DNA of 64,000 bases from Naegleria gruberi (lineage: Eukaryota). The number at the start of each line of letters is the position of its first letter. Position 1 is the stretch's first letter. Location: the NCBI GenBank assembly GCA_000004985.1, contig GG738927.1; one strand, given 5' to 3'. Under the pieces are notes generated by a model, which did no database searches, was not told the DNA's origin, and saw nothing but the letters and a program-made list of their open reading frames with translations. Position numbers and translations under genes: made by a program. This document shows positions 32,987-55,769 of the stretch, in pieces.

Positions 32987-34873
32987 CTAGTCCGAATCTT
33001 CCTCTTCAGTTTTTGGTTTCTGACTAAAAAAGGAGCCAATTTCACTTTGCTTCTTTTTAACTTTCAGCTTACAATTCACTTTTTCTTCCTTTCCTGTCTC
33101 CTTATCAACTATGAAAATATCATCTTCATCATCTATTTCATTCTCCTGGGGAAGAATTGATTTTTTCACAAGCTTAATATTACTCTGCTTTTTGGTTGGT
33201 TTTTTGGATGATGGCTCTGGAAATTCCTTTCCAGGAATAAATGGAGTCTGGAATAGATTGATGAGTTTCTTCACCTTCTTCTTACCAAAACCTGGCAAGT
33301 CATTCAGTTCATCAGATGTTGTCTGAATGACCTCTTTCAGTGATCCAAAGTGATTGAGCAATGTAATGTGATCTCTCTTGTTGAGTGTGTTTTTCAGAGT
33401 GGCAGCAAAGAGTTGATGCACTTCCTCAGTGTGCGAAAGTTTTTCTACCTCAACTGGTTTGGAGTTGCTATTGGAGCTACTTTCCCTACTCCATCTCCTA
33501 TTTCCCTTTCGTTTACCTTGTCCTCCTGTTGATGTAACCAATGAATTGGTTGATGATTGAAGTGAGGCCAATGATTGATTAGGTCCTTGAATCAATGATG
33601 AACCCTTAGTCTCGCATGCTCTAATGGTTTCCAAATACAGTGCACATTCCTCATCTGAAAATCCACAAATCACAGTCCAATCGGCCCACATGGAAATTCT
33701 CGTTACTTCTATGAGTGCCTCATCGAGTGCAGTCTCTGAAACATAGGTTGGTGCCTTAAAGGTTCCACCATTCTCACCCTGAGAGTCCTGATGATTAGAT
33801 AGATAAATTGATGAATCTCCACAGGCATCCACATGTACATCCACATTCACTAGAATGATTCGATTAGTAAACGTGCCTCTTTTACAAATTTCAGTCTTGT
33901 GAAAATTCTTAATTCTCTCTAAAATATATTTCGGTTTGGTCATGTGAAATTTAAGACTGAGATAGAATGCAGTGGTTTGTCTTCCTAGAATATAATCAGT
34001 TAAGGTCCAATCTTTTGTAAAGTGTAATTTGAAAACCTTGTCCCGAATGTGTTTTACAATGGGATTCTTCTTTTGCACTTCATTTGCAACAATGGTTGTG
34101 GCAGTGGTGGGAAAAGGCACATACGAATTAGGTGGTACAGGATTTGATGTTACAGCAACTTGTGGACTAATGCTTTCAATCAATGGAGAAGCAGAAGCAC
34201 TATTACTACTTCCAACAGAAGAAGGCGTCGATGGTGTACTACTATTAAATGGAGGAATAAATATTGGAGGAGTACTTTGATTCAAAGATGTCATAGACGA
34301 CTTGACAGGAGTAACAAAAGATGAAGATCCACTACCAACACTCGGAGAAGAATTACTCTTTTGAGAATTTTGAGAATTTTGAGATGTTTGTGAAATCCTT
34401 TGTGGAGGAATAAACTTTTGTGGCACGAATGGCACGTTACTATTACTCGGAATGCTATTTGGTGGAGAAACCACAGTACCAGGTGTTCTATTGATAATTC
34501 TACTCGTGTAATTTGTTGTTGGTGTGTTGCTACTGCTTGCTACAGACGATGATTGTCTCGTTTGTTGTTGTTGATTGAAATTAATTAAATTATTATTATT
34601 ATTGGATGATCCCAAGCCTGGAGCACTATTCGGAAGCCTCAAAGTAGCAGATGACGATGATGGTGATGATGATGATTTAAAATTCCTTTTCAATTCGGCA
34701 AGCCTTTGATTGGCATCTTGTCGATAACTTTCCAATTCTCGTTCTTCCTTTTCCTGTTCCTCATCAATATCAAAATCCATTACATTGACAATCAATCCGC
34801 CTCCTCCTCCACTACTACCCTTCGAAGATGATGATGAATTGTTATTCCGAGAGGATGAATTGTTTTCTTGCAT
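32987..34873 (-). CDS. ERCC1: DNA excision repair protein ERCC1 homolog (XPF partner), with an N/S/Q-rich N-terminal extension of about 270 aa.
   Basis: The central domain aligns with ERCC1 (NPIVKHIRDKVFKLHF...YILGRQTTAFYLSLKFH......RIILVNVDV...WADWTVICGFSDEECALYLETIRACE, compared with human [49 protein letters not shown]). The C-terminal tandem helix-hairpin-helix (HhH2) reads LLNHFGSLKEVIQTTSDELNDLPGFGKKKVKKLINLFQTPF. Confidence 0.8.
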   Translation of the reverse strand: MQENNSSSRNNNSSSSSKGSSGGGGGLIVNVMDFDIDEEQEKEERELESYRQDANQRLAELKRNFKSSSSPSSSSATLRLPNSAPGLGSSNNNNNLINFNQQQQTRQSSSVASSSNTPTTNYTSRIINRTPGTVVSPPNSIPSNSNVPFVPQKFIPPQRISQTSQNSQNSQKSNSSPSVGSGSSSFVTPVKSSMTSLNQSTPPIFIPPFNSSTPSTPSSVGSSNSASASPLIESISPQVAVTSNPVPPNSYVPFPTTATTIVANEVQKKNPIVKHIRDKVFKLHFTKDWTLTDYILGRQTTAFYLSLKFHMTKPKYILERIKNFHKTEICKRGTFTNRIILVNVDVHVDACGDSSIYLSNHQDSQGENGGTFKAPTYVSETALDEALIEVTRISMWADWTVICGFSDEECALYLETIRACETKGSSLIQGPNQSLASLQSSTNSLVTSTGGQGKRKGNRRWSRESSSNSNSKPVEVEKLSHTEEVHQLFAATLKNTLNKRDHITLLNHFGSLKEVIQTTSDELNDLPGFGKKKVKKLINLFQTPFIPGKEFPEPSSKKPTKKQSNIKLVKKSILPQENEIDDEDDIFIVDKETGKEEKVNCKLKVKKKQSEIGSFFSQKPKTEEEDSD

Positions 34874-34960: not shown

Positions 34961-37900
34961 TTATTTCTTCTTCTTGGTAGAGTAACTTGTTTCTTTTGGT
35001 GTTGGTAGCTTTTTCTTTGGTTTCTCTTCCTCAGATTCCGAACTTTCTATCTTCTTTTTAGTTTCATATTTCATATCATCATCGGATTCTTCAGAGTCAT
35101 ACTTCTTTGCTTTCTTTGAAACAGGTGATTTGAGTGGTTTCTCTATCTTCTTTGGTGATGGACACCCATCAGAAGAGTCGTCATCTGAACTTTCTTTCTT
35201 CTTTTCACTCTTTTTAGTTTTCCATGTTTCTGTTTCTTCCTCTTCGTCATCCAATACTTCATGAATGTTTGTGAGCTCGTCTTTGGATCTCTTGACATAA
35301 ATGTGAGATTCACGAGTTCTCAATACTAATTTTCTAGACCGATACCAAGATTTGTTCATTTTTGATTCTAAGCTCATTGTTTGAAAGTTAATTGTGTTGC
35401 CATTAGAGAGTTCGTATAGAGAATTTGTAGCCTTTTTTGAGCTTGACTTTTGAGCTTTGAATAACCTGTATGCTTGTTCCACTAGTTTTGCTTCTTCTTC
35501 ACCAAGTACATTTCTACCAGAGCCTATCCCAAGTATCCATTGATACTTGGTAAACTTTTTCTTTCCTACTGACTTGTTCTCTATTTTTTCATCAACATAG
35601 GCATCTCTAAAAAAGTTTCTATTATGTGGATGGAATGAGCCAACAACATATTGACGGGTTGGCTCATATGTTATAAATTCCAAATGTGGAGGGAGGTCAC
35701 TCTTTGGTTCCTTTGGTTGAATAATTCCATTAATATCGTTAAGTGAATACTCAAAGAATAGTTTCATCTTTTTCTCCTCAACTACGTATGTTGTTCTTGC
35801 CTTAATGTGATTAAAAAGCTGACTAGCAGATATAAATTCAGAATTCCAACTGTACCTAGGAAGACGAATTTGTGTATAGTCATGATATTTTGACTTGGAA
35901 ACCGTCTTTTCGGCAGATTCAACATCATTTCCTGCTCCAATTGATTTCAGTCCTCCTCTAAAATTGGCATGCTTATAGGCATGTCTGATGAGGAGAATTT
36001 TGGCAAGACCTGTGACATTATGAAGTTTGGCTCTTGGTTGAGGCTGTCTAAAGTATCTTCTATTATGTTTGTAGAAATGATCCCCTATCAAAATATCATT
36101 TTGAACTCTTTTTTCTTCATAGCCAGCTACTCCAACTCTAAAGCCACGGAGAGCATACTTGGTTAACCTTAATTCGTCTTATGAAATTATTAGAATTTAA
36201 TTTTAAAGTACTCACAAGTTGTAGATTGTCTATCAACGTCTACAATATTGCATCTTGTCTTTATGGCTTGAATGGCTCTTGGTAATGCGTAAACTTGAGA
36301 GCCATCAAAACCAACACAACAACAATTCACATCGAATCCAATTAAGACTTCAGCCTTTTGTTGACCAAGAGATTTGTAAATTTTAAAAATTACGTAAACT
36401 TACTGGAGATTTGTAAATTCTCAAAATTACTTGCACTGTCCTTACTGAGCTGATAAACTTGAATGTAATAGCATTTTCAGTTCTGATCAACAAAATATCA
36501 TCATAATTTGTGCCTTCTTCGGTGGACTTTGGAGAGGAGTATTTTTTGGATTTTTTAGTGAGCTTGTTGAACTTGTTGCTATCATTTGCATTTTCTGGTT
36601 TTGCAAAATGTGGAATGTTTTTGATATTCTTTTTGAATAATTCAAAAAGGTAAAAAATCTTCTTTTCGGCTTCCTTTTCATCCAAACCATAAATGAATAA
36701 ATCTATATCACTGTTTTTCCAATAGGATTTTCTAAAATAGTTGAAAAGTTCTTCATCCAAATCATCTTGTTCGTATTTTTTGAATGAGCTTGCTTTTTTG
36801 GCTCGAACAGGTTTATCGTCCTCAGAACTTGTTGCTGAAAAATATCCATCTGCAACAGACCCATTATCATTATCAGAATTAGAACCATCATCCTCATCCC
36901 AGAGCACTTTTTTCTTTGCTTGTTGCATTACTCCACCTTGGAAAGGATCAACCTTTTGAAATCTACTGTAACGGTTTTCTTGTAGCAAGTCTTTTCTATC
37001 CAATTTAGCTTTGAGCATGCATGCCAAAATTCCACCACCTAATTTTTAAATATTATTGAAAATTGAATAATTAAAAATATTAAAGAAAGACATACCTGCT
37101 GCGAATACATTACTCCAATCCATATCTTTAAATAGACCACAAGTTAGAGCGTTAAATTGAGTGAAGAATTCTTCTCTATCAGAAACAATTTCTGGGATTG
37201 GTGGCAATTTGAGTCTTGAATATTCATTGATAAGTTCAGAACATTCAACAGGGTTTTCAAAATCAAAAAGCAAAGGTAGGGTACTTGGAGGATCGCATGG
37301 TTTGAGTAATTCTCTGGTAGAATGTTCATTACCAAAAACACTAACCAAATGAATGTAAGGATCTGAAAGAATCTGATTTTCTCTATCTGAAACATATAAA
37401 TTTCTCAAAAAGTCTTCCTCTTTTTTGATTTTTAAATTATTAGATCCAATATCTTCGATTGGATAACGAAGAGGATCTAAAAAGTCTAAAAGTCCTTGGA
37501 GTTTGAATTCTTTGGCCTCTTTGTAAACCAGTTTTCTCTGAGACATTTCTCTTGGGACTGAAGTGAAGGTTGCACTCTCCAAATATTCGTACAATACAGA
37601 AAAGACTTCACTATCTCTGTCAAGGAATATTTCACGGTTGGTACTTGCTTGAATCAATTGAGGGAAAATACTTTCTGGATGGACAAGTAACTTTTCAATA
37701 CCAATGCAAAATTTCACACCTCTTACATTGAAAACAATTGGTTCCTTTTTCAAAAAGGCCTCTCTTTTTCTGAGTTCTTCTCTTTCCTGTTCAAGATCAA
37801 CCTCAGCCTTTTTCAAAAAGTCTTCCATGACAGTCTTTTCCTTGAGTGTAAGCTTTGAAAACATATCCAACCATTTTTCATCACTTTCGTTTTGATTAGA

Positions 37901-38720
37901 ATGGAGAGTGTTATGTTGAGAAACTCTGTATTCTTTGATTTCAGGTGTATCTTCCTTTTCTTCCATTCTTTGGTGTCTTTGATTGGAATTGTGTTGCTTG
38001 ATCAATTCGGCAACTCTTGCACTTAATTTACTTGTACCAAAGTAATCAGATTCTATCAGCAAAGCTTTTAACTTTTCAATGGTATCTTCAGTTATATTTT
38101 CCCACAAACCTACATATGTGGTGGATCCTGTGTGAATTAAATAAATGTCACTCGTCATCACAACTAAACATTCTTAACCTACCAGTTCTAATATGCTCCA
38201 AAATGATTGGAAAATAATCTGGATTACTCTCACTCAACAAGATACAGCCATTCTCATCACGATCAACCTTAAAATCAGAATTCAACATGGTCTTGATCAT
38301 ATTCTCTCTTCTATTAATGGTAGAAAGTGAGGTAACAAACATTTTCCCTCCGACCATCAATTTGACAATATTTTCACCTGATTGCAAGATTTCCTTCACC
38401 TTTTCACTATTCAGATGATCATCTTGTTGGTCATCCATCTTGTTGCCATTAAACTTTTCTAGAACTTCGATTTCCTTCATCTTTTGTTGATTTCTTCTCC
38501 TTTCTTCATCGATTTTGTGGAGAGCATCAATTCGGACTGTTTCTAATTCTTCTCTCTCTTTGATGTATTGTGGATCATCTTTTGAAGAGGAAAATGATGA
38601 TGGTTTTGGTGCATAGGATGAAGATGACGAAGAGCTTGGTTCTTCTGCTTTGCGTTTCTTCTGATGTTCGAAGGCGGAGGATGAGCTTACTTTCCTTGCC
38701 GTTTGTTTGGTTCGGGCCAT
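34961..38720 (-). CDS. Large multi-domain protein: a histone H3 N-terminal tail mimic (MARTKQTARK), two KCTD/T1-type BTB domains, an unassigned D-x-D-containing central domain, and a K/E/S-rich tail. Approximate structure is join(34961..36167,36212..36354,36404..37038,37096..~38130,~38148..38720).
   Basis: ATG at 38720 with an A-rich leader. The first 10 residues are identical to histone H3. BTB/T1 signatures include VKLMVGGKMFVTSLSTI...DRDENGCILLSESNPDYFPIILEHIRTGRLRM and IVFNVRGVKFCIGIEKLL...REIFLDRDSEVFSVLYEYLESATF. Three downstream introns (GTATGT, GTAAGT and GTACTT donors) restore the frame exactly into the 36383..37027 ORF, a 139/143-nt exon, and the 34961..36091 ORF. The BTB1/BTB2 junction near 38130-38168 is unresolved. 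Confidence 0.55.
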
Positions 38721-38878
38721 TTTTTTTCTTGTTGAAACTAGAAATCATTCAAAGATGTTGTAATGATCACAGCTGTGATTTTCATAGTAACTTGTGGATT
38801 TTGTAAAGATTTACAGTAAAGTAACACATTTTAATTGGTTAAAATAATTGGTTTAATAAATTGATGAGATCAGCTCAA

Positions 38879-44321: not shown

Positions 44322-46676
44322 ATGAAAACAAGACAAATAACGCCGAGCCCTCTAACGATTTCATCATCTTCAAATCGTCCCGAAAAACATTCGAATAATA
44401 ACATTAAAACTTGCTGCTTTGGAAGAAACTTTAGTTTACGAGTGAAAACTACTTTCGTATTAATTATAATGTTTCTCGGATTGATGGCACTTTGTCTGGG
44501 GATTTTACTAGCTGCCTTTTTCGTGGTTTTTCAAAATGTGGAATATCAACAAGCTAAAGAAGCAAGTAAACGAGTTTCTCGAGCATTATTGGACGATTTG
44601 AATTATTTACAGTCAAAAGTATTCGAATTTGGAGCATTTGATGATACAGTTTCCGTCTATGAAAATCTCACTCAGGAAAATATTGGAAATTACACTGAAA
44701 TGTATTGGCACTGTGTTTATTTAAATAGTGTGAATGTGAATATGGCTTTTCTTTATTCGAAAGATGGAACTTTAATTACAAAAGTTCATTGCTTTAAGGG
44801 GCAAATGATAGAACAAGTTCCTGATGAGTTTTCAAGTTTGGAAAAGAATTCGTATGGAAATTTCTTTTTACAAGATATTGAAAATGTTTGGAGTAGGAAA
44901 TCTGGAATTTTAATTCCAAAAAAGACAATTTTTGAGATGGCAACTTCTGATGAATCGAGGAATTTCCTTTCGAGTTATGAATCGAATGTGACGAATATTG
45001 TGTTGGTAGCTGCAATGCCAGTGCAGAGTACAAATTATGATTATTCGAGAGGTTTAGTCTTGTTTGCCAAGTATCAATTGGATGAACATGCTTTGGATAT
45101 GGCTGAAAGAACTCAACTTTGCATGACCATGATGAATTTGAAAAACGAAACTGACCTCTATTCATTCAAGGAATCGATTGGATCGTTGGATACGAATGCA
45201 TTTTCGAGTGGAACTGATTGGAAAGTAACAAATATTACAACCTCATCCTATTTAACTGATTGGATTGATAACGAATCGTCGTTGGTTCAGTTTTTGGACT
45301 CGAGTGAAGAAAATTCAGTGAAATTGAATAATCGTCAATGTTGGAAAGATAATATGAATGATGAAAGTTCTGTTTCCTTCAATGCTGGATCTCCTACCGA
45401 TAGAATGGCTTCCTATCAAGCATTCTACACACTAGATGGAGAAAAGTCACTCATTATTCGATCCGATATTCCAAGAAAGACATTTCAAATAGGAATGGCA
45501 TCATTTCTAGTTGTTTGGTCAGTCATGACTTTTATGATTGTTGTCATGTCAATTGCCATTGTCTGTTTTGTGGAAATGATAGTTCTGAGAAGAGTCATCT
45601 CACTATCAAGTACTGTACAACGTGTGCACGACACTGTTAATTATGCAATTAGAGCTCCAAAACTAGGAAATGATGAACTAGGTCAATTATCCAAAGATCT
45701 TAACACCATGCTCGGAGAGATTGAACATGTGCAAAATCAACTCGAAAAGGACAATACAGTGATGCAGGATTTATTGGAGAAGACTGCTCTCGAAGAGGCC
45801 AAGAGTAGATGCGTCATGAATAGTATTGACGATTTCATTGTAACTGTTGACTGCTCAAATGGCATGCTTCTCAATATCAACCTCTCATTTGAGAGTAGAA
45901 TCTTGAGAAAACAGAGAGCTTCCGTAAATTTTGAAGCACTCCCCTTCAATCAAGCTGTCTTTGCCTATTTTAAGGAAATTCCATCATTGGAATTGCTTTT
46001 ACAAAAATTGGAAAATCTTGCCACGACTGGATCACATTGGGAAACTACCATTCTATCAGGATTTGGATTGAATATTCCAGTACATGTCACTGCTAAAAGA
46101 ATTAAGGTAATTATGGGTAAATTCACACGAGTGGATGCATACATGATTGTTGCCAGAAATTTGAGCGATCAAAACGAAATGAAACAAACCATCAAGAACA
46201 AACAAGATAAACTCGATGAAATGAAACAACATTCTGACTTTGACAGATACATGACAGATCCAATACTAAGACAACAATTTAAGGAATTTTGCACTAAGGA
46301 ACGAGCTGAGGAAAATGTCATCTTTTTGGAACAAGTAATGGAATATAAGAAATTATCAAGAACTCACGAAAGAGCCAAGAAACAAAAGGAAATTATTGAA
46401 ATGTTTCTTTCTGAAAATTCAGCAACACCAATCAATATTTCAAAACAAGTTTTTACAACAGAAGTGAAGAAAATTTTGGAAGGTTTTGGCCAATTACAAC
46501 TTTTTGATAATTTAGAAACAATTATTAAGAGTATGCTCATTTTGGATAAGTTTAAGAGATTTATTTCACAATTTGAAACAAGTCAAATGACGACCATTGA
46601 TACGGACAACATGTCTAGCTCAGGATCAATCGCATCAGATGCCAGTTATCAACACACTTTTACATCAACTGATTAA
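44322..46676 (+). CDS. Receptor-like membrane protein: TM, a ~340-aa extracellular sensor region, TM, HAMP, a PAS-like domain and an RGS domain.
   Basis: The HAMP sequence immediately follows TM2 (VLRRVISLSSTVQRVHDTVNYAIRAPKLGNDELGQLSKDLNTMLGEIE). The RGS-domain signature is ILRQQFKEFCTKERAEENVIFLEQVMEYKKL...IIEMFLSENSATPINIS....KKILE. Confidence 0.65.
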   Translation: MKTRQITPSPLTISSSSNRPEKHSNNNIKTCCFGRNFSLRVKTTFVLIIMFLGLMALCLGILLAAFFVVFQNVEYQQAKEASKRVSRALLDDLNYLQSKVFEFGAFDDTVSVYENLTQENIGNYTEMYWHCVYLNSVNVNMAFLYSKDGTLITKVHCFKGQMIEQVPDEFSSLEKNSYGNFFLQDIENVWSRKSGILIPKKTIFEMATSDESRNFLSSYESNVTNIVLVAAMPVQSTNYDYSRGLVLFAKYQLDEHALDMAERTQLCMTMMNLKNETDLYSFKESIGSLDTNAFSSGTDWKVTNITTSSYLTDWIDNESSLVQFLDSSEENSVKLNNRQCWKDNMNDESSVSFNAGSPTDRMASYQAFYTLDGEKSLIIRSDIPRKTFQIGMASFLVVWSVMTFMIVVMSIAIVCFVEMIVLRRVISLSSTVQRVHDTVNYAIRAPKLGNDELGQLSKDLNTMLGEIEHVQNQLEKDNTVMQDLLEKTALEEAKSRCVMNSIDDFIVTVDCSNGMLLNINLSFESRILRKQRASVNFEALPFNQAVFAYFKEIPSLELLLQKLENLATTGSHWETTILSGFGLNIPVHVTAKRIKVIMGKFTRVDAYMIVARNLSDQNEMKQTIKNKQDKLDEMKQHSDFDRYMTDPILRQQFKEFCTKERAEENVIFLEQVMEYKKLSRTHERAKKQKEIIEMFLSENSATPINISKQVFTTEVKKILEGFGQLQLFDNLETIIKSMLILDKFKRFISQFETSQMTTIDTDNMSSSGSIASDASYQHTFTSTD

Positions 46677-48399: not shown

Positions 48400-51300
48400 A
48401 TGTATTCAAACAACAACAAGTGTCATTGTGGTTTAATTGCCAAGCAAGGAACGACCTCGAAGGGAGAAAATCAGGGTAGAAAGTACACCTCCTGTTCTAA
48501 AAGTATGACTGATAAGAGTCGATGCAAATTCTTCAAGTGGTTAGATTCATCAGAACAAACAGCAACAACCAACATATCATCTTCTTCATCATCCTTCAAA
48601 AGCAATAGCAAATTACAGCACAGTGAGCAGGCTTTTGATGATACTTTGAACAAGACGATACAATTGATGAATAGAGTGCTTCCTTCTTCCTTGTTATCAT
48701 CAACAAGTGGTTCTTCTTCTTCATCATCAAATAACAAGTCTCCTTCCAACAACACTAATAGCCAGTGCTCATCTCTCACACTCTCACAATTGTGCTCCAG
48801 TATGGAAGACTTGAATATTGACAAAGATCTTTCAAAGCCTTCTTCTTCTCAAGCTATTGATAGAGACTTCATATTGAATGATAGTCTTTTTCCTTCTTCT
48901 TCTTCAGAAGCAAGCAAGAATAGTCTTCCTCTGATTGGAAACAATCAGCATAAAGGAGGAACATCATCTTCATCGTTACCAAATTCTCTCCTTGAAGAAT
49001 GTATGCAAAAGGAATTAAATAGCAAACAATTGGAGGCTGTCTGTGCTAGCGAACATGATTGTGTATGTGTTTATAGTGGACCGGGATCTGGTAAGACAAA
49101 GGTAAGTTGTTGTTATTATTGGATGGTAGAGGGAATTAATAATTAATTATTTGATGAATATTCATCTTGTGATGATGTGATGAATTTTTTTTTAATTTTT
49201 ATTTAATTTTTTTAAAAAATTCATAACGGTCATGGATCCAAATTTTAGACCATCACCAACAGGATTGCCTACTTGTGTATTGTTAAAGGAATTGAACCAA
49301 GGAATGTATTTGCCATGACTTTTACTAACAAGGCTGCTCAGGAGATGAAAACAAGACTTGTTCACCTTGTGAAATTGTACGATTTTCAAAAGAGAATTAA
49401 TGCAAAGGATTTCAGTCATATTGGAACGTTTCATGCAGTTTGTGCTAATATTTTGAGAAATGAGATGCATCATTTGACTCGTATTGTTGGATTGGATCAG
49501 AAATTTATGATATTTGATTCGGAAGAGCAGCTGTCATAATTAGGAGCTTGTACAAGTCATCAACTAATCATTCCATTAGAAGNNNNNNNNNNNNNNNNNN
49601 NNNNNNNNNNNNNNNNNNNNNNNNNNNNNNNNCTTTTAAAAAATTCGTAACGGTCATTGTAAACTTTGGGTGGATCCAAATTTTAGACCATCACCTACAG
49701 GATTGCCTACTTGTGTATTGTTAAAGGAATTGAACCAAGGAATGTATTTGCCATGACTTTTACTAACAAGGCTGCTCAGGAGATGAAAACAAGACTTGTT
49801 CACCTTGTGAAATTGTACGATTTTCAAATTAATGCAAAGGATTTCAAGACTTGTTCACCTTGTGAAATTGTACGATTTTCAAATTAATGCAAAGGATTTC
49901 AGTCATATTGGAACGTTTCATGCAGTTTGTGCTAATATTTTGAGAAATGAGATGCATCATTTGACTCGTCTTGTTGGATTGGATCAGAAATTTATGATAT
50001 TTGATTCGGAAGAGCAGCTGTCAATAATTAGGAGCTTGTACAAGTCATCAACTAATCATTTCATTAGAAGTTTACTTCCATTGAGTTTGTCTTTGGAGGA
50101 TATGGAGAAGAAACTCTCTCCAACTCTAGTTTTACAAACGATATCACGATGTAAGAATCAACAGGTTTCAGCTGATGAATATTCGAAAGCATTCCATCAA
50201 GAAATTGAGGAAACGGTCATTGCTGAACTATTTGTAGAATATCAACAGTATTTATCGAAACACAATGGGGTGGATTTTGATGATTTATTGCTTCATGTTG
50301 TGTACTTGTTTGAAAAATTCCCTCTAGTGAGAGAAAAGTATGCCAATCAATGTGAAGTATTATTGGTCGATGAATTTCAAGATATCAACAAGTTACAATA
50401 CAAGATTGCCATGCATTTGAACTCAAAGAGGAAGAACATCTTCTTGGTTGGTGATTCCGATCAAAACATTTACACTTTCAGATTCAGTGATAGCTCAATA
50501 ATGCGGGAAGTTATCAAAAAGTATGAGAAGGAGGGAAAGAGCATGAAAGTCATCATGATGAATGAAAACTATCGATCCACAAGAAGTATTGTCCAATTTT
50601 CAGACAAAATAATAGCTAGCAATTCTAACAGATTAAGAACTATCAGCTCTACCACTTCAAACACCACGGGTTTACCAGTTTCGATAGTCAGTTGCTCTGA
50701 TGAAGCCGAGTTCATTACAAATGAAATTGTAAAACTCACAAACATGAATAACAACATTCAATATTGCGACTTTGCAATCCTTATCAGAGTCAACTCTGCT
50801 TCTCGAGTATTCGAAGACATTTTTGATAGGAAAAAGTTGCCTTACAGAATTTTGAATTCCACAAGATTTTACGACTCTATGGAAGTGAAAGATATTCTTT
50901 CCTATGCAAAAGCTATTGCAAATCCAGATAATGATCACTTCCTGTTGAGCTGTGTGAATGTTCCAAGAAGATGCATCACTGAGGAGACAAAGTCCAAGTT
51001 GATAAAGCTTGCAGCTCAGAATAAGATGTCTCTGAGGTCAATTATCAAGAATCATAACAAGGAAATTGCTGGACATCTAGGAGCCAATGAGTTACAAACA
51101 CTCATTTCCACAATAGATTTTATCGAAAAGTCTCAAATTAATCTTCATTCTCCTTCAACTATTATGCAAGATATTATTCGGGTGATTGATTATGAATCCT
51201 ACTTGAAATTCACACAGAAGAATATGTTCGAAACAAGATGGGAGAATTTGAAAGAGTTAATTAACATGTGTCAAGAATTTGAGTCCAAATCAACCATTCC

Positions 51301-52570
51301 CTCAATTTCATCATTTTTACAAAGCATTTCAATTTCCACAGAGATGGAACCAATTTCAAAAGATTCATCAAATTCCATTACAATTTCCACAATCCATGCA
51401 GCCAAAGGTTTAGAATTTGGAATTGTATTTGTGGCAGGAGTTGAGAAGGGAAATATTCCATACTACAAAGCTCAGGAAAAGAATGAAATAGAGGAAGAGA
51501 GAAGATTACTGTTCGTTGCCTGTACAAGGGCTCAGTCCTTACTCTGTTTAACCAATTCCAAAACAAGATTCAGACTTGGAAAGAGTTACAACACTCAGAG
51601 TTCTGAGTTTTTGAGCATAATTCTCTCTAATCAATTCACATTCTATTCTAATTCATCATTAGCGACTCTATTGAGTGATAATTCCATATCTCAATTAAGA
51701 TATGAGACTATTAATCATTTAGTAGCTTGCAGAGACAAGAAATCTAAACAAAATCTTTCTTCCTCCTCGGATATTCTGACAAAAGATCTGAAACGAGTTA
51801 AAAATATGGAAAGTTTCGAACCTACAACCGAATCAAGCAACGTTCCAGAATATTGGTTCAATAAGGAACGATTCAAGATTGTGGACGTAACAGATACTAT
51901 GAAATTAACCATTCAAGACTTGATGGATAATTCATGTGAAAAGAAAACTCTTGGAAGTGGAAAGGATCAAACGTATTTCAAGAAACAATACACTCAATTG
52001 GAAGTTATCAAAGTGGAACGAGTTGAAAATCCAAATCTCTACGGATTATATCAAGCCAAACAATCTCAAATGAAATCTTTCAAGGATAATCCCCAACCCA
52101 TCCCAGTCAAAACTGTGGAAAAAGTTCCACCCAACTCAACAGCCAAAACCTGGATTCAAAGTGTAAAATTATGCCAACAAGTTAATGAAAAATTCTTTTG
52201 GCACGGCACTGATTCACAAGTTGTGAGCATTATTTGTGAACATGGTTTAGATGCAAGAGTGAGCTCACTTTCTGGACTATTCGGTGCAGGAATTTATTTT
52301 GCAGAATATTGTTCCAAGAGTGATCAATACTGCTCGCCAACGAATGATCTTTTTCACATGTTTCTCTGTCGAGTCATGATTGGTAATCAAATTGAAACTC
52401 TTGAAAAGGGAAAATCTCTCAATAATATTCGAAGACCAAGTGTCATTCCAAACACCAATGGACGAACATTTGATAGTATTCTAGGAAAACCAAACATGTA
52501 CAAGGAATTTGTAGTTTACGATAGTTGCCAATGCTATCCAGAATTTCTAATTACTTATAAAAGGAAATAA
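48400..52570 (+). CDS. Three-domain fusion: zf-GRF zinc finger + UvrD/Rep-type SF1 DNA helicase + C-terminal PARP catalytic domain with an H-Y-E triad. Exon 1 is 48400..49101 and exon 2 begins at 49249 (copy A) or 49687 (copy B). The coding sequence is interrupted by a scaffold gap and a duplicated, misassembled block, then is continuous from 49832 to 52570.
   Basis: The zf-GRF pattern is [27 protein letters not shown]...CKFFKWLD. Walker A is SGPGSGKTK, followed by GTAAGT (49102). The helicase motifs are Ia [49 protein letters not shown], and [19 protein letters not shown]...[13 protein letters not shown]. The PARP segment reads [47 protein letters not shown] (compared with PARP1 LLWHGSR...[21 protein letters not shown]), then [11 protein letters not shown] (PARP1 LLGEVALGNMYE) and [19 protein letters not shown]. 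Confidence 0.75.
49192..50060. repeat. Near-identical duplicated block flanking the gap (about 49192-49582 vs 49633-50060), plus a tandem 55-bp internal duplication (49792-49846 and 49847-49901). This is most likely an assembly or haplotype artefact inside the helicase gene.
   Basis: The copies differ by a 1-nt indel (ctgtcataatt vs ctgtcaataatt), a 6-nt indel (caaaagagaatt vs caaattaat), and one substitution (TITNR vs TITYR). The 55-bp unit is not a multiple of 3, so it breaks the frame. Confidence 0.7.
49583..49632. other. Scaffold/assembly gap, a run of 50 N.
   Basis: Seen directly in the sequence. Confidence 0.98.
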
Positions 52571-52763: not shown

Positions 52764-55700
52764 ATGGAACAACGACCAAACGAAGAGCACGTGCTGAAGG
52801 AAGCATCGACGACGTGTTCGTTATTATCATCATCATCACTATCATCAGCTTTTCGGAAAGTATCAGGAGGTGAAGAAGGAATGAATTTGAATGATTCATC
52901 GTCATCTTCTACGAGTACATGCAATAATAATCATAATAATTGTAATCGACGACATCGTCATTATCAAGAGGGAGGGCTTTCGGCATTGCCTAATGAAATT
53001 TATTTACATATATTTTCATTTGCACTTGATCCATTTTCTCTAATCGGAAGTGTGGCTAGTATTAGACATGTGAACAAATGTTGGTTTGAATTGACGGAAT
53101 CGGAATTCTTTTGGAAGGAAATTGTTATTAGATTGTTGAGACAAAAGATGATGGTGGAGAGTACGGAAGATGGTGTTGATACTCAGCAGAAGGAGGATAT
53201 TGAACAATTGAATGCAGAATATGAGGAATTGAGTAATAATTATGAAGATTTTGATGAATTTATGCAAGAATTATCGAATAGGTTTTACAAGACACATGAA
53301 TTTATTGATAATTTGATATATAATACTAGAACGAGCAGATACTCGGTATTTTATAAGAAGAATGATCGATTTATTGGATGGAAAAAGTATGATGATGTGG
53401 AAAGTATTGAAGAATATGATTCAGAGGAAGAAGGAGATGATATTAATGTGGGACCAAATCTTTTCGATAAATCCAAGGAATGGATAGATAGTTGCGGAGA
53501 GGAGCATCATACAGGAAATGTATTATTGCAAGCATGTTTGGAAATCATTTTAGGCCATGAGATGGTAGAACATTTGGGAATGAAATCGTGTGGAGTTTTC
53601 ATTCAACAATTTTTCTCAAAGCTTTTCGAACCAGCAATCAAAATGATTAAAACACAGAAAGAGGCAGGAACCAAGTTGAATGTGGTGGAATTGGAAAAAA
53701 CTCCAATCTTGAATAGAAACCTACTCAACTTCATCAAGGAAAATGGAAGATGCTCCAAATTATTCCAGCAAAAAATTACAAATAATTGGAATCTTTTTGA
53801 TGAACATTACTGTACAATACCAAGGCAGTATATTCTCTTTATGGTTGAACATTTTTCGAGAGTTAAAGTCAGAGAGGGAGCATGTGAAATGAATGCAGTT
53901 AAATACATTTGCAAATCTCTCAGAGATTGTGGAATTAAAATCGAGGACTTGTGCTTTATAGGTGACAATGTAATGCCAAACTTTGAGTACACAAATGGAT
54001 TGAGGTCTATGGTAAGATCTGGAAGTGGTGTTTTCTTATTGACTCATTTGGCAGTTTGGACAGAAAATTACGAGCTATTGGACTGGGCATTAACAGTGAA
54101 AAATAAGGAAGGAGATGTTACTCTGTATGATTTAGTAACCTCAACCCTGGCAGAGCATATTAATGCAGATCAAATGGACCACATAGATAGAGTTATTCCA
54201 AAAGATCTCACTGTAAAGTCGTACATTATGGCTCATCTTTCACCTGTTGAAGTGAAAACATACCTTCTCAATGAAGCTGTCATGATGAACAATGTGGAGA
54301 TGGTAAGGCACTTGTGTGACAAGTATTTGTGTAATCCATTTGGACCTTGGGAACACAAGTATTCCTCTCCTTTGCAGTATGCTCTGATGCAAAGTATGCA
54401 CGCCTCACTCTCCAAACATAATAACGAACAAAAGATTGTGGAAATTTTCGAGAAAAAGTATGGACACTCTGATAATTACAAAACTGAAATAGAAATTGCT
54501 AAAAAACTGAGTGCACAACGGAGAGTAACCTCAGAGACATGCTCATTGTGTTCTTGCTTGACCAGTGATAAAACTGCATTGGCTTACGAGAAAAAGTATG
54601 GAGGTGTCTACAAACCAAATATTGAGGAAGAGAATTATGAACATGTTGAAATGAAACGAAATTTCGTATTAGAAGAAGAGACAATAGCGCCTGTGATTTC
54701 ACTTGATGTACCAGGGGTACCATATGATGGTACTGAGTCAGATGAGGATGATACCGAAGAGTGCATGTCAATTCCATGGCTTCGTCACTATGTTCATAAT
54801 AAGAAGAGAAAGAGAGCTCACAATGATCCAGTTATTGACACTATAATTAAGGAAAAGGAAATAATGGGACCAGTGACGGACATTGTATCGAACTTTGAGA
54901 GTGTCAATGAGCATACTGACTTTGCTGATGATTTCTATATAGAGGTCAAAGCTCTAAATAGGACATGGGATCGCAGCAAGAGGATTAAATTAGATGAAGA
55001 TGCACCAAACGAGAAGTTTACCACTACTAGAGACTCTCTCTGTTTTTCTAAACTTAATTTTAGAGAAGTAGTCCAAGCAGAATTAAGAAGACAAAAAACG
55101 GATGTCTTTCTCAGTCCACATGCAAAAATGTTGGTCCAACAAGCTGCAGAAGATTTTATTGAACATCAAATCTATCGTCTCAATAATGAAATGACCTATG
55201 GAGAGCCATCTGATACTCAGACTGGCCGAGCCAAGACATTATTTACTGATAAGTTTACGGGAACACTGTACTTCCGATATCAATTCTTTAGAAATTGTGA
55301 AATTCATGATCAGCTTTCAACATTTGCCTTTGGAAAACATAATCTAGTATTTGAGGAAATTGTAAAACTTCTTAATGCCTTGATAGAGGAAGAGGAAGAT
55401 GACGAAGAGGATGATTTGGATTATCCATGTGATCATCTCTCTGTTAATTCTGATGATTCCATGTTATCATGCACTGCCTTAGAGTTTGGAGAAAATCATG
55501 AAGAGGGATTATTCAGAATGCCAAAGAACTTTATGGTTTACACTGATTTGGAGAATTTAAAATATTCTAAATCATTTGTTGGAGATGATGGTTATGAGAG
55601 AATTCTTGCTACTGAGATTCATCAAAACACAAAACATCACATTGTCACAAGTTCTGATCCTAAACTAATTACTAGTTGGGCTGACAATATTACAATCCAT

Positions 55701-55769
55701 GATTCTGGAAACGAACATAACTTGTATGAAACTAAATTATTACAATCTCAACTCGAAAAAAATAGATAA
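52764..55769 (+). CDS. F-box domain protein, 1001 aa.
   Basis: An N-terminal S-rich leader is followed by an F-box-like segment (LSALPNEIYLHIFSFALDPFSLIGSVASIRHVNKCWFELTE). The remainder is unassigned, with an acidic EDDEEDD patch near the C-terminus. Confidence 0.5.
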   Translation: MEQRPNEEHVLKEASTTCSLLSSSSLSSAFRKVSGGEEGMNLNDSSSSSTSTCNNNHNNCNRRHRHYQEGGLSALPNEIYLHIFSFALDPFSLIGSVASIRHVNKCWFELTESEFFWKEIVIRLLRQKMMVESTEDGVDTQQKEDIEQLNAEYEELSNNYEDFDEFMQELSNRFYKTHEFIDNLIYNTRTSRYSVFYKKNDRFIGWKKYDDVESIEEYDSEEEGDDINVGPNLFDKSKEWIDSCGEEHHTGNVLLQACLEIILGHEMVEHLGMKSCGVFIQQFFSKLFEPAIKMIKTQKEAGTKLNVVELEKTPILNRNLLNFIKENGRCSKLFQQKITNNWNLFDEHYCTIPRQYILFMVEHFSRVKVREGACEMNAVKYICKSLRDCGIKIEDLCFIGDNVMPNFEYTNGLRSMVRSGSGVFLLTHLAVWTENYELLDWALTVKNKEGDVTLYDLVTSTLAEHINADQMDHIDRVIPKDLTVKSYIMAHLSPVEVKTYLLNEAVMMNNVEMVRHLCDKYLCNPFGPWEHKYSSPLQYALMQSMHASLSKHNNEQKIVEIFEKKYGHSDNYKTEIEIAKKLSAQRRVTSETCSLCSCLTSDKTALAYEKKYGGVYKPNIEEENYEHVEMKRNFVLEEETIAPVISLDVPGVPYDGTESDEDDTEECMSIPWLRHYVHNKKRKRAHNDPVIDTIIKEKEIMGPVTDIVSNFESVNEHTDFADDFYIEVKALNRTWDRSKRIKLDEDAPNEKFTTTRDSLCFSKLNFREVVQAELRRQKTDVFLSPHAKMLVQQAAEDFIEHQIYRLNNEMTYGEPSDTQTGRAKTLFTDKFTGTLYFRYQFFRNCEIHDQLSTFAFGKHNLVFEEIVKLLNALIEEEEDDEEDDLDYPCDHLSVNSDDSMLSCTALEFGENHEEGLFRMPKNFMVYTDLENLKYSKSFVGDDGYERILATEIHQNTKHHIVTSSDPKLITSWADNITIHDSGNEHNLYETKLLQSQLEKNR

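Follow-up and report, generated by a model that had tools for sequence, protein, structure and literature searches.

An exact copy of histone H3 residues 1-9 opens a Naegleria gruberi BTB protein, and H3-tail copies recur in its predicted nucleotidyltransferase family

Introduction

Among the closest described counterparts of the gene reported here are the human histone H3-tail mimics (H3TMs; VRK1, PCLAF/PAF15, BCL11A/B, SALL and FOG), non-histone proteins whose N-termini, once the initiator methionine has been removed, imitate the A1-R2-x-K4 start of histone H3 (Chen et al. 2021, PMC8166343). Characterized by an M-Z-R-x-K motif, they bind PHD and Tudor readers and NuRD (PMC8166343). A second point of reference is Gad2, a phage anti-Gabija protein and predicted nucleotidyltransferase (NTase; bioRxiv 10.1101/2023.05.01.538930). 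Here, we analyze a gene on the minus strand of a 64,000-nucleotide stretch of Naegleria gruberi DNA (assembly GCA_000004985.1, contig GG738927.1; G+C 34%), which we refer to in its full length as the window. Its 1186-amino-acid product begins with residues 1-9 of H3, bears two BTB domains and contains a predicted NTase domain of the Pfam family to which Gad2 belongs, and further copies of the H3 tail are found on other members of this NTase family. Canonical H3 tail marks have been documented in N. gruberi (bioRxiv 10.1101/2021.11.30.470311), so readers and writers of the tail should exist in this organism.

The H3(1-9) start and the gene model

Read on the minus strand from the ATG at position 38720, the open reading frame (ORF) translates as MARTKQTARKVSSSS (in a longer reading, MARTKQTARKVSSSSAFEHQKKRK). 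The start codon and the nine codons that follow it (38691..38720; all coordinates of this gene are on the minus strand) specify ARTKQTARK, so that residues 1-9 are identical to those of the canonical H3 N-terminal tail, ARTKQTARKSTGGKAPRK, while the protein is not H3-like from residue 10 onward. The peptide spanning the H3-like segment and the sequence downstream of it is KQTARKVSSSSAFEHQK, and VSSSSAFEHQK is a gene-specific peptide. Given the local amino-acid composition, the probability of ARTKQTARK at a fixed position is ~2e-12, or ~3e-8 over 16,000 N-termini, and ARTK/QTARK occurs a single time in the six frames of the whole window. Three of the nine codons of the nonapeptide (CGA, ACG and AGG) are rare elsewhere in the gene. 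The same locus is present in a second strain, represented by an ENA metagenome contig (L001) that is 99.1% identical to the window; its first 30 coding bases are unchanged, and its 5' flank at 38750-38779 is highly variable relative to the window. If the ATG at 38720 is used, the MARTK start satisfies the H3TM motif iMet-[AGSCTPV]-R-x-K, and the alanine at position 2 predicts removal of the initiator methionine.

The likeness to H3 ends abruptly. Residues 10-58 of the window protein are no more similar to H3 than shuffled sequences are (P 0.96), and for this reason descent of the protein from a whole H3 tail was dropped as an explanation. A tblastn search with full-length H3 aligned residues 1-25 only (E 0.047), with the identity essentially within residues 1-10. 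No Pfam Histone match was obtained for the protein, and tblastn searches with H3, H4, H2A and H2B revealed no remnant of a histone fold in or beside the gene, and the idea of an H3 pseudogene remnant was rejected on this basis. An initial annotation of the window, made from the sequence alone, had described an exact H3 start with no histone fold behind it and had named a degraded H3 pseudogene as the finding that would speak against this description; the searches bear out the former and give no support to the latter. Elsewhere in the window, a weak tblastn match to the histone-fold region of H3 (E 0.04) lies at 55038-55160 (+) within the ORF of an F-box protein (52764-55769) and is probably due to chance.

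The whole coding region, stop codon included, occupies 34961..38720 and consists of five exons (38720-38183, 38127-37096, 37038-36404, 36354-36216 and 36177-34961) separated by introns of 55, 57, 49 and 38 nucleotides, all of which have GT..AG borders. The spliced translation is open throughout, and all four splice junctions (HIRTG|STTYVGLWE, NVFAAG|GGILAC, RIYKSP|AEVLIGFD and RQSTT|YELRL) align without gaps to full-length homologs from Naegleria lovaniensis, Naegleria fowleri and Willaertia, in agreement with the five-exon model proposed initially.

With regard to the start of translation, an in-frame stop codon lies nine codons 5' of the ATG at 38720, no further in-frame ATG was found 5' of this ATG in the window sequence, and the next in-frame ATG is residue 81, which is 3' of residues conserved in the homologs. 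The conserved residues (the KRKR cluster and a coiled coil) start by residue 20, and the sole in-frame ATG 5' of them is that at 38720, whose context, AAAAAAAATGG, is strong. Because of the upstream in-frame stop, and because the next ATG comes only at residue 81, past conserved residues, the ATG at 38720 is, judged from the reading frame, the only plausible start. An upstream ATG at 38748 opens a 57-amino-acid overlapping upstream ORF (38575..38748) that is out of frame with the ATG at 38720 in the window. The poly-A run 5' of the ATG comprises eight A in the window and seven in strain L001, and owing to this 1-nucleotide difference the ATG at 38748 is in frame in L001, where the reading is MISSFNKKK-MARTKQ... 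(P0046); the corresponding stretch of L001 is 886-1485. Since a frame-changing 1-nucleotide indel is tolerated between the strains, the stretch between 38748 and 38720 is probably non-coding and the ATG at 38720 probably the true start.

The central nucleotidyltransferase domain

Residues ~497-794 (36140..37177, across introns 2-4) form a Gad2-like NTase domain of the Pol-beta type. The G-[GS] motif, the DxD and the third carboxylate that go with a Pol-beta NTase fold can all be recognized in it, as AAGGG at residues 522-526, D634-x-D636 and G741-F742-D743, and an acidic, serine-rich disordered insert lies inside the domain at residues ~540-620. Across the family alignment, the DxD is at least 90% conserved and the GFD is invariant. 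The initial annotation had pointed to a Pol-beta-like DxD domain with an SDIDLFIYGL motif, and both are present, the latter at residues 633-642 with a GFD...GFDG motif downstream of it; the downstream string that it quoted was one letter off, the correct reading being VLIGFDVNCCCVGFDG.

The same annotation had called the family of this domain unknown, which matches on homologs now supersede. Assignment to Pfam PF26128 (Gad2) is indirect in that it comes from a precomputed match on a protein (P0007) that is 99% identical to the exon-3 product. PF26128 also matches the same ORF in strain L001 (a fragment, with the match flagged as weak), all 39 of the 39 homologs found with the domain alone, and full-length homologs. 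On the basis of these matches, the central domain is a Pol-beta-type NTase of PF26128 with conserved catalytic carboxylates and is a predicted enzyme. Structure prediction was run on the homolog P0001 and on the exon-5 ORF in place of the spliced window protein, and the predicted fold of the close homolog resembles class II CCA-adding/poly(A) polymerase enzymes. When the family alignment was compared by hhalign to the first 133 amino acids of SPbetaL7 Gad2, the match was weak (E 0.0015, probability 17%) with all motif blocks in register. PHROG 1614, annotated as 'nucleotidyltransferase', was matched with E 0.0035 by the window domain and with 2e-5 by a homolog. A tblastn search against 50,697 phage records returned nothing significant, and a pattern scan of prokaryotic genomes found no chromosomal homologs. 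We would like to note that in one N. lovaniensis family member (P0003, 869 amino acids) ...CAGGVV is followed directly by GFDGTQ so that most of the NTase domain is missing, either through a real deletion or through a gene-model error.

H3-tail copies elsewhere in the NTase family

A profile search of 1.84 billion representative proteins yielded 668 matches at E <1e-30, mostly through the NTase domain, and 176 proteins were fetched and scanned for H3-like peptides. Three more carriers lacking a histone fold were found among these 176. A transcript from Rhizamoeba saxonica (P0170) starts with MARTKQTARKSTGGKAPRK, which is identical to H3 at 18 of 18 residues. A protein from Cladochytrium tenue (P0024) starts with MARTRQTARKSTGGIAPR; its gene has a canonical 164-nucleotide intron after ATGGCGCGG, and the codons for TRQTARK... 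share an exon with the next 170 residues. The third carrier, P0154, is a 2209-amino-acid NTase-ankyrin protein encoded by one uninterrupted 6.6-kb metagenomic ORF, and its copy, ARTKQTCRMSTGGKAPRKQM, is internal.

As an independent sample, 80 metagenomic loci (668 kb in total) that had been retrieved by alignment of the NTase domain were scanned in six frames at a threshold of at least 7 of 9 residues. Only two matches were obtained, and both lie within NTase ORFs, one being P0154 again and the other a new locus (L049) with an ORF that starts MARTQQTARK, stays uninterrupted for at least 919 codons and leads directly into the NTase domain. A shuffled-peptide control on the same 668 kb gave 2 matches in 20 trials. 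Beyond residues 1-9, the L049 protein is not H3-like (P 0.89). Because only residues 1-9 are H3-like in both the window protein and L049, the comparison suggests that it is the very N-terminal end that counts. A1, R2, T3, Q5, T6 and R8 are invariant across the five tails.

No copies of the H4, H2A or H2B tails or of H3 residues 21-42 were found in the family. The nearest relatives of each carrier have no tail, making the distribution sporadic, and at the DNA level no hidden upstream H3-like exons were found in three relatives, from Microthyrium, Fusarium and Planoprotostelium. None of the four other carriers was seen to have a BTB domain (one has ankyrin repeats, and another has no other Pfam domain), and the BTB-bearing Naegleria homologs have no tail; the tail therefore is, as far as these proteins indicate, tied to the NTase domain and not to the BTB scaffold. 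The initial annotation had proposed an H3 mimic on a BTB scaffold that could serve as a decoy or recruiter. Copies of the H3 tail do recur, but they do so on NTase relatives without BTB domains and not on the BTB relatives. Taken as a pattern among sequences, the recurrence of H3 1-9 and 1-20 copies in one family is no coincidence, neutral capture would hardly account for it, and it makes the idea of a mimic acting as decoy or recruiter more plausible, with the function itself still a proposal.

Homologs in Heterolobosea and possible origins of the tail

The close homologs of the window protein all belong to Heterolobosea (N. lovaniensis, N. fowleri and Willaertia magna). They begin 8-30 residues before the KRKR cluster, with starts such as MITQEIPSSQKRKR, MIPSSPKRKR, MLPSPTLQVKRKR and the like. 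A search with exon 1 for orthologs with the tail retrieved only the same locus in the 99%-identical strain, and the profile search, which returned many family members, gave none with a tail from among the Naegleria or Willaertia homologs. Because the H3 start is missing from the N. lovaniensis, N. fowleri and Willaertia homologs, ARTKQTARK is, on this distribution, a gain of the present lineage, and in the alignment the nonapeptide has the appearance of an insertion that immediately follows the methionine.

A paralog from the same kind of organism (P0045; L002 4457-6079 / L003 6001-7623) starts with MARKKSMVVSSS (MARKKS) in a very similar AAAAAAAATGGCAAG context. Its start satisfies the M-Z-R-x-K rule for H3 mimics and hints at how an ARTKQTARK start could have arisen. 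Since this paralog has both a MARK start and the AAAAAAAATGGCAAG context, an insertion of 18 nucleotides into an ancestral MARK start is one possible origin of the nonapeptide. For the window gene, the tail either came from an H3 gene by capture or arose by convergence on the H3 sequence.

Other domains of the protein and family context

From the N- to the C-terminus, the protein comprises H3(1-9), a KKRK cluster, a coiled coil, a BTB domain, a second coiled coil, a second BTB domain, the Gad2-like NTase domain, a helical region, a WWE-like domain and a charged tail. The basic KKRK cluster at residues 21-24 (38649..38660) aligns with KRKR/KKRK in all full-length homologs and is a putative nuclear localization signal. 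The two T1/KCTD-type BTB domains that had been proposed initially are supported by Pfam BTB_2 (PF02214), which matches two stretches (E 1.3e-11, 45.1 bits versus a cutoff of 21.4), and by sequence matches in the PDB at residues 117-185 and 309-397 to the BTB domains of BACURD, KCTD1, KCTD15, KCTD17 and KCTD9. The first (residues ~117-218, 38012..38372) is interrupted by intron 1 (38182-38128) and matches PDB entries 5fta and 4uij (BACURD) with E 4.5e-6, and the second (residues ~309-396, 37478..37741) matches KCTD1 and KCTD15 with E 0.0016-0.011.

Classification of the C-terminal region, which had been suggested initially, brought to light a degenerate WWE-like domain at residues 988-1075 (35297..35560) that the initial annotation had overlooked. 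The window protein itself has no Pfam WWE match at E up to 1, and the assignment comes from alignment to the WWE domains of homologs together with AlphaFold2 (AF2) and Foldseek. WWE (PF02825) is found at the aligned position in the homologs P0005, P0006 and P0047 with 39-45 bits versus a cutoff of 21.1, and homologs with a Pfam-significant WWE at this position occur in N. fowleri, N. lovaniensis and Willaertia. In the AF2 model of the exon-5 product, which has an overall predicted local distance difference test score (pLDDT) of 53, residues 988-1075 are the sole confident part, with a pLDDT of 70-87. A Foldseek search of the PDB with this model returned WWE domains as nine of the ten best matches, including the top eight, but with weak E values of 0.035-0.7; they comprise TRIP12 (template modeling (TM) score 0.72, E 0.035), RNF146, Deltex, PARP13 and PARP14. 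The protein ends in a low-complexity tail rich in lysine, glutamate, serine and aspartate (residues 1081-1186, 34964..35281), which can be read directly from the sequence, as the initial annotation had done, and is not conserved in the homologs.

The NTase family as a whole is widespread in eukaryotes and giant viruses, and the window protein belongs to a branch that is expanded in Heterolobosea. Members of the family carry no annotation beyond "ankyrin repeat protein" (Fusarium, Trametes, Microthyrium, Planoprotostelium and Syncephalis) or "BTB domain-containing protein", and their partner domains include BTB_2, ankyrin, TPR, protein kinase, PP2C, ubiquitin, WWE, complete PARP modules of the DNA-damage type (WGR, regulatory and catalytic) and one HMG box. 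Full sets of WGR, PARP-regulatory and PARP-catalytic modules are present in P0120 (Clydonella) and P0095, and P0103 and P0022 have the catalytic domain only; these four PARP-fused members come from Amoebozoa and unidentified contigs, and P0095 also has the HMG box. P0120 and P0148 bear histone-H1-like tails rich in lysine, alanine and proline, with GKAPRK and KAPRKSAPS. Ten loci on giant-virus metagenome-assembled genome (MAG) contigs from IMG/VR (L086-L095) encode NTase-domain homologs that are 33-49% identical, some of them within proteins of ~1500 amino acids, and none of these ten loci has an H3-like tail.

Interpretation and alternative explanations

The presence of H3 copies on NTase relatives suggests a link between this enzyme family and the H3 tail. 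We therefore propose, with a probability of roughly 0.5, that the window protein has kept its tail, a captured H3 segment, as a histone-tail mimic (a bait, a targeting signal or a pseudosubstrate) that is functionally coupled to the NTase. We infer that the gene product would be a nuclear, oligomeric enzyme. Removal of the initiator methionine would expose a free Ala1, and oligomerization, mediated by the coiled coils and both T1-type BTB domains, would present several copies of the tail, which could then engage the H3-tail binders and modifiers of the cell as a bait or targeting signal, much as in the N-terminal mimicry of the human H3TMs. Alternatively, the tail may be a cis pseudosubstrate of the enzyme or of its partners, a situation comparable to automodification at the histone mimics of G9a, SETDB1 and Clr4. 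In both cases, the activity of the NTase would become linked to the machinery of the H3 tail. The PARP WGR-regulatory-catalytic modules and the HMG box that are fused to family members would provide a supportive chromatin context.

A bolder version of this proposal, which we regard as unlikely, would make the eukaryotic Gad2-like NTases chromatin enzymes whose target is the N-terminal tail of H3 or ADP-ribose linked to this tail, which they might modify by nucleotidylylation of T3, T6 or a ribose hydroxyl, with the H3 replicas as cis-substrates or pseudosubstrates. If true, the H3-tail-NTase, PARP-NTase and NTase-WWE fusions would be Rosetta-stone evidence that amoebae, fungi and giant viruses possess a new pathway of histone-tail modification.

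Several observations weigh against a retained mimic. The H3 match in the window protein is limited to nine residues, and the H3 start is absent from every N. lovaniensis, N. fowleri and Willaertia homolog, hence it is young within Naegleria and could be neutral. Of the family members examined, no more than a few percent are carriers, and one of these, the Rhizamoeba transcript, was assembled with Trinity and may be chimeric. The five tails differ at K4 (K, K, R, K, Q) and at K9 (K, K, K, M, K), so a simple model of K4/K9 methyl readers fails for some of them, and the internal position of the P0154 copy means that a free Ala1 is not universally required. The main caveat for a free N-terminus is the upstream ATG of strain L001, which, if transcribed and used, could leave the tail buried.

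As an alternative, the tail may be a neutral relic, functionless but harmless, that was grafted onto the gene as a short piece from the 5' end of an H3 gene or as a gene-conversion tract for which an ancestral MARK... start was the seed. The absence of the tail from all homologs of other Naegleria and of Willaertia, the match of only nine residues, the MARKKS start of the paralog in its AAAAAAAATGGCAAG context, from which an 18-nucleotide insertion could yield the motif, and the rare codons CGA, ACG and AGG, which suggest a foreign or recent origin, all fit such a history. However, at least four other members of the same family carry copies through independent recurrence, with none in ~670 kb of flanking sequence, and in two lineages the likeness to H3 stays only at residues 1-9. 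The tail is also identical in the second strain, though the divergence between the strains is too low to be decisive. We consider a neutral relic somewhat unlikely for these reasons. The tail could instead be a decoy that is integrated into a conflict or immunity protein, where it would be bait for H3-targeting effectors of pathogens such as intracellular bacteria and giant viruses, and modification or cleavage of the bait would activate the NTase. The family has its Pfam entry in common with a phage anti-defense protein, giant-virus MAGs encode NTase homologs, the partner domains ankyrin, TPR, PARP and WWE are typical of conflict systems, and the distribution is patchy and lineage-specific among hosts that are amoebae and zoosporic fungi. 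Nevertheless, no NACHT/NB-ARC or death-like signaling module was seen among the partner domains of the family and the giant-virus homologs are without tails, and we rate this role as improbable.

The H3 tail is a known importin ligand, and the peptide is basic on a protein that looks nuclear from its KKRK cluster and from the chromatin-type partner domains in its family, so that the tail could be only an extra signal for nuclear import. A conserved KKRK/KRKR cluster is already present 10 residues downstream, however, including in homologs without the tail, and any basic peptide would do for import, leaving the exact H3 sequence and its recurrence in one enzyme family unexplained; we thus give this explanation little credence. 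Finally, the ARTK segment might not be at the mature N-terminus or might not be translated at all, the true start being elsewhere or in an upstream exon. The ATG at 38748 that is in frame in L001 favors this, but the in-frame stop nine codons upstream in the window, the frame-changing indel between strains that makes the 38748-38720 stretch unlikely to be coding, the position of the next in-frame ATG past conserved residues, the strong context of the ATG at 38720 and the homologs' own starts at 8-30 residues before KRKR all speak for the proposed start, and the chance that it is wrong appears very slight.

Neighboring genes in the window

Immediately downstream of the H3-tail gene, at 32987-34873 (-), lies an ERCC1/Rad10 homolog (Rad10 and helix-hairpin-helix domains) with a long N-terminal extension rich in serine and asparagine. 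The ORF at 44322-46676 (+) encodes an RGS domain together with the sensor domains CHASE4 and HAMP. At 49832-52570 (+), a UvrD-type superfamily 1 helicase (UvrD-helicase and UvrD_C) is fused to a C-terminal PARP catalytic domain in an unusual architecture; this ORF is 11 kb from the H3-tail gene, whose own family is also linked to PARP and WWE.

Comparison with known systems

Histone mimicry is known as a concept, and our literature searches found no description of a cellular non-histone protein with ARTKQTARK or of an H3-tail-NTase fusion, so the fusion predicted here appears to be without an earlier description in the literature. What would be new is an authentic 9-to-18-residue segment of the H3 N-terminus within cellular proteins, and its repeated, apparently independent occurrence in one enzyme family that spans three eukaryotic supergroups and falls in the Pfam family of a phage anti-defense protein. 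Recurrent fusion is a classic functional clue, and it offers a hypothesis for hundreds of entries named "ankyrin repeat" or "BTB domain-containing", namely that these proteins work on, or by way of, the H3 tail or its readers and writers, perhaps in conjunction with ADP-ribosylation. The window protein could also be a natural reagent, displaying the H3 tail multivalently on a BTB scaffold in a culturable amoeba.

As for its enzymatic part, the window protein has Pfam PF26128 and the motifs AGG, DxD, Q.I and FD..C..FD in common with phage Gad2. In contrast to the window protein, which is eukaryotic, multidomain and of a nuclear type, Gad2 is a single-domain protein of ~400 amino acids that blocks Gabija, and pairwise similarity to phage sequences escapes tblastn and is only weakly picked up by hhalign (E 0.0015). 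Sequence identity to class II CCA-adding enzymes, bacterial poly(A) polymerases and TENT5 terminal nucleotidyltransferases is only 11-16%, and the window NTase has no recognizable tRNA/RNA-binding body and tail domains and has a large disordered insert between the G-G and DxD motifs. The BTB_2 type is common to the window protein and to KCTD/BACURD proteins, which are CUL3 adaptors that form tetramers or pentamers, but the window protein differs from these in having tandem BTB_2 domains and coiled coils fused to a predicted enzyme.

Among histone mimics, the automethylated enzymes G9a/GLP, SETDB1 and Clr4 (bioRxiv 10.1101/2025.01.21.634156, PMC12418378) likewise carry an H3-like peptide of their own, which serves as a substrate or pseudosubstrate or recruits readers. 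Their mimics are internal, of the K9 type (ARKS/ARKT), and reside in SET methyltransferases with established histone activity, whereas the window protein has H3 1-9 on a predicted NTase. Viral mimics such as ARSK in influenza NS1 and ARKS in SARS-CoV-2 ORF8 (PMC6028506, bioRxiv 10.1101/2021.11.10.468057) are likewise short H3-like peptides on non-histone proteins and engage host chromatin factors, but they are internal or C-terminal and 4-6 residues long, while the mimic in the window protein is cellular, N-terminal and longer. Both the window protein and its MARKK paralog obey the M-Z-R-x-K rule of the H3TMs, from which they differ in that the host of the window mimic is a protist enzyme of an unrelated family. 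H3TMs share only 3-5 residues with H3, whereas the window protein matches it at 9 of 9 and a family relative at up to 18 of 18, and copies of the latter length suggest, as far as sequence identity can indicate, descent from H3 and not convergence alone.

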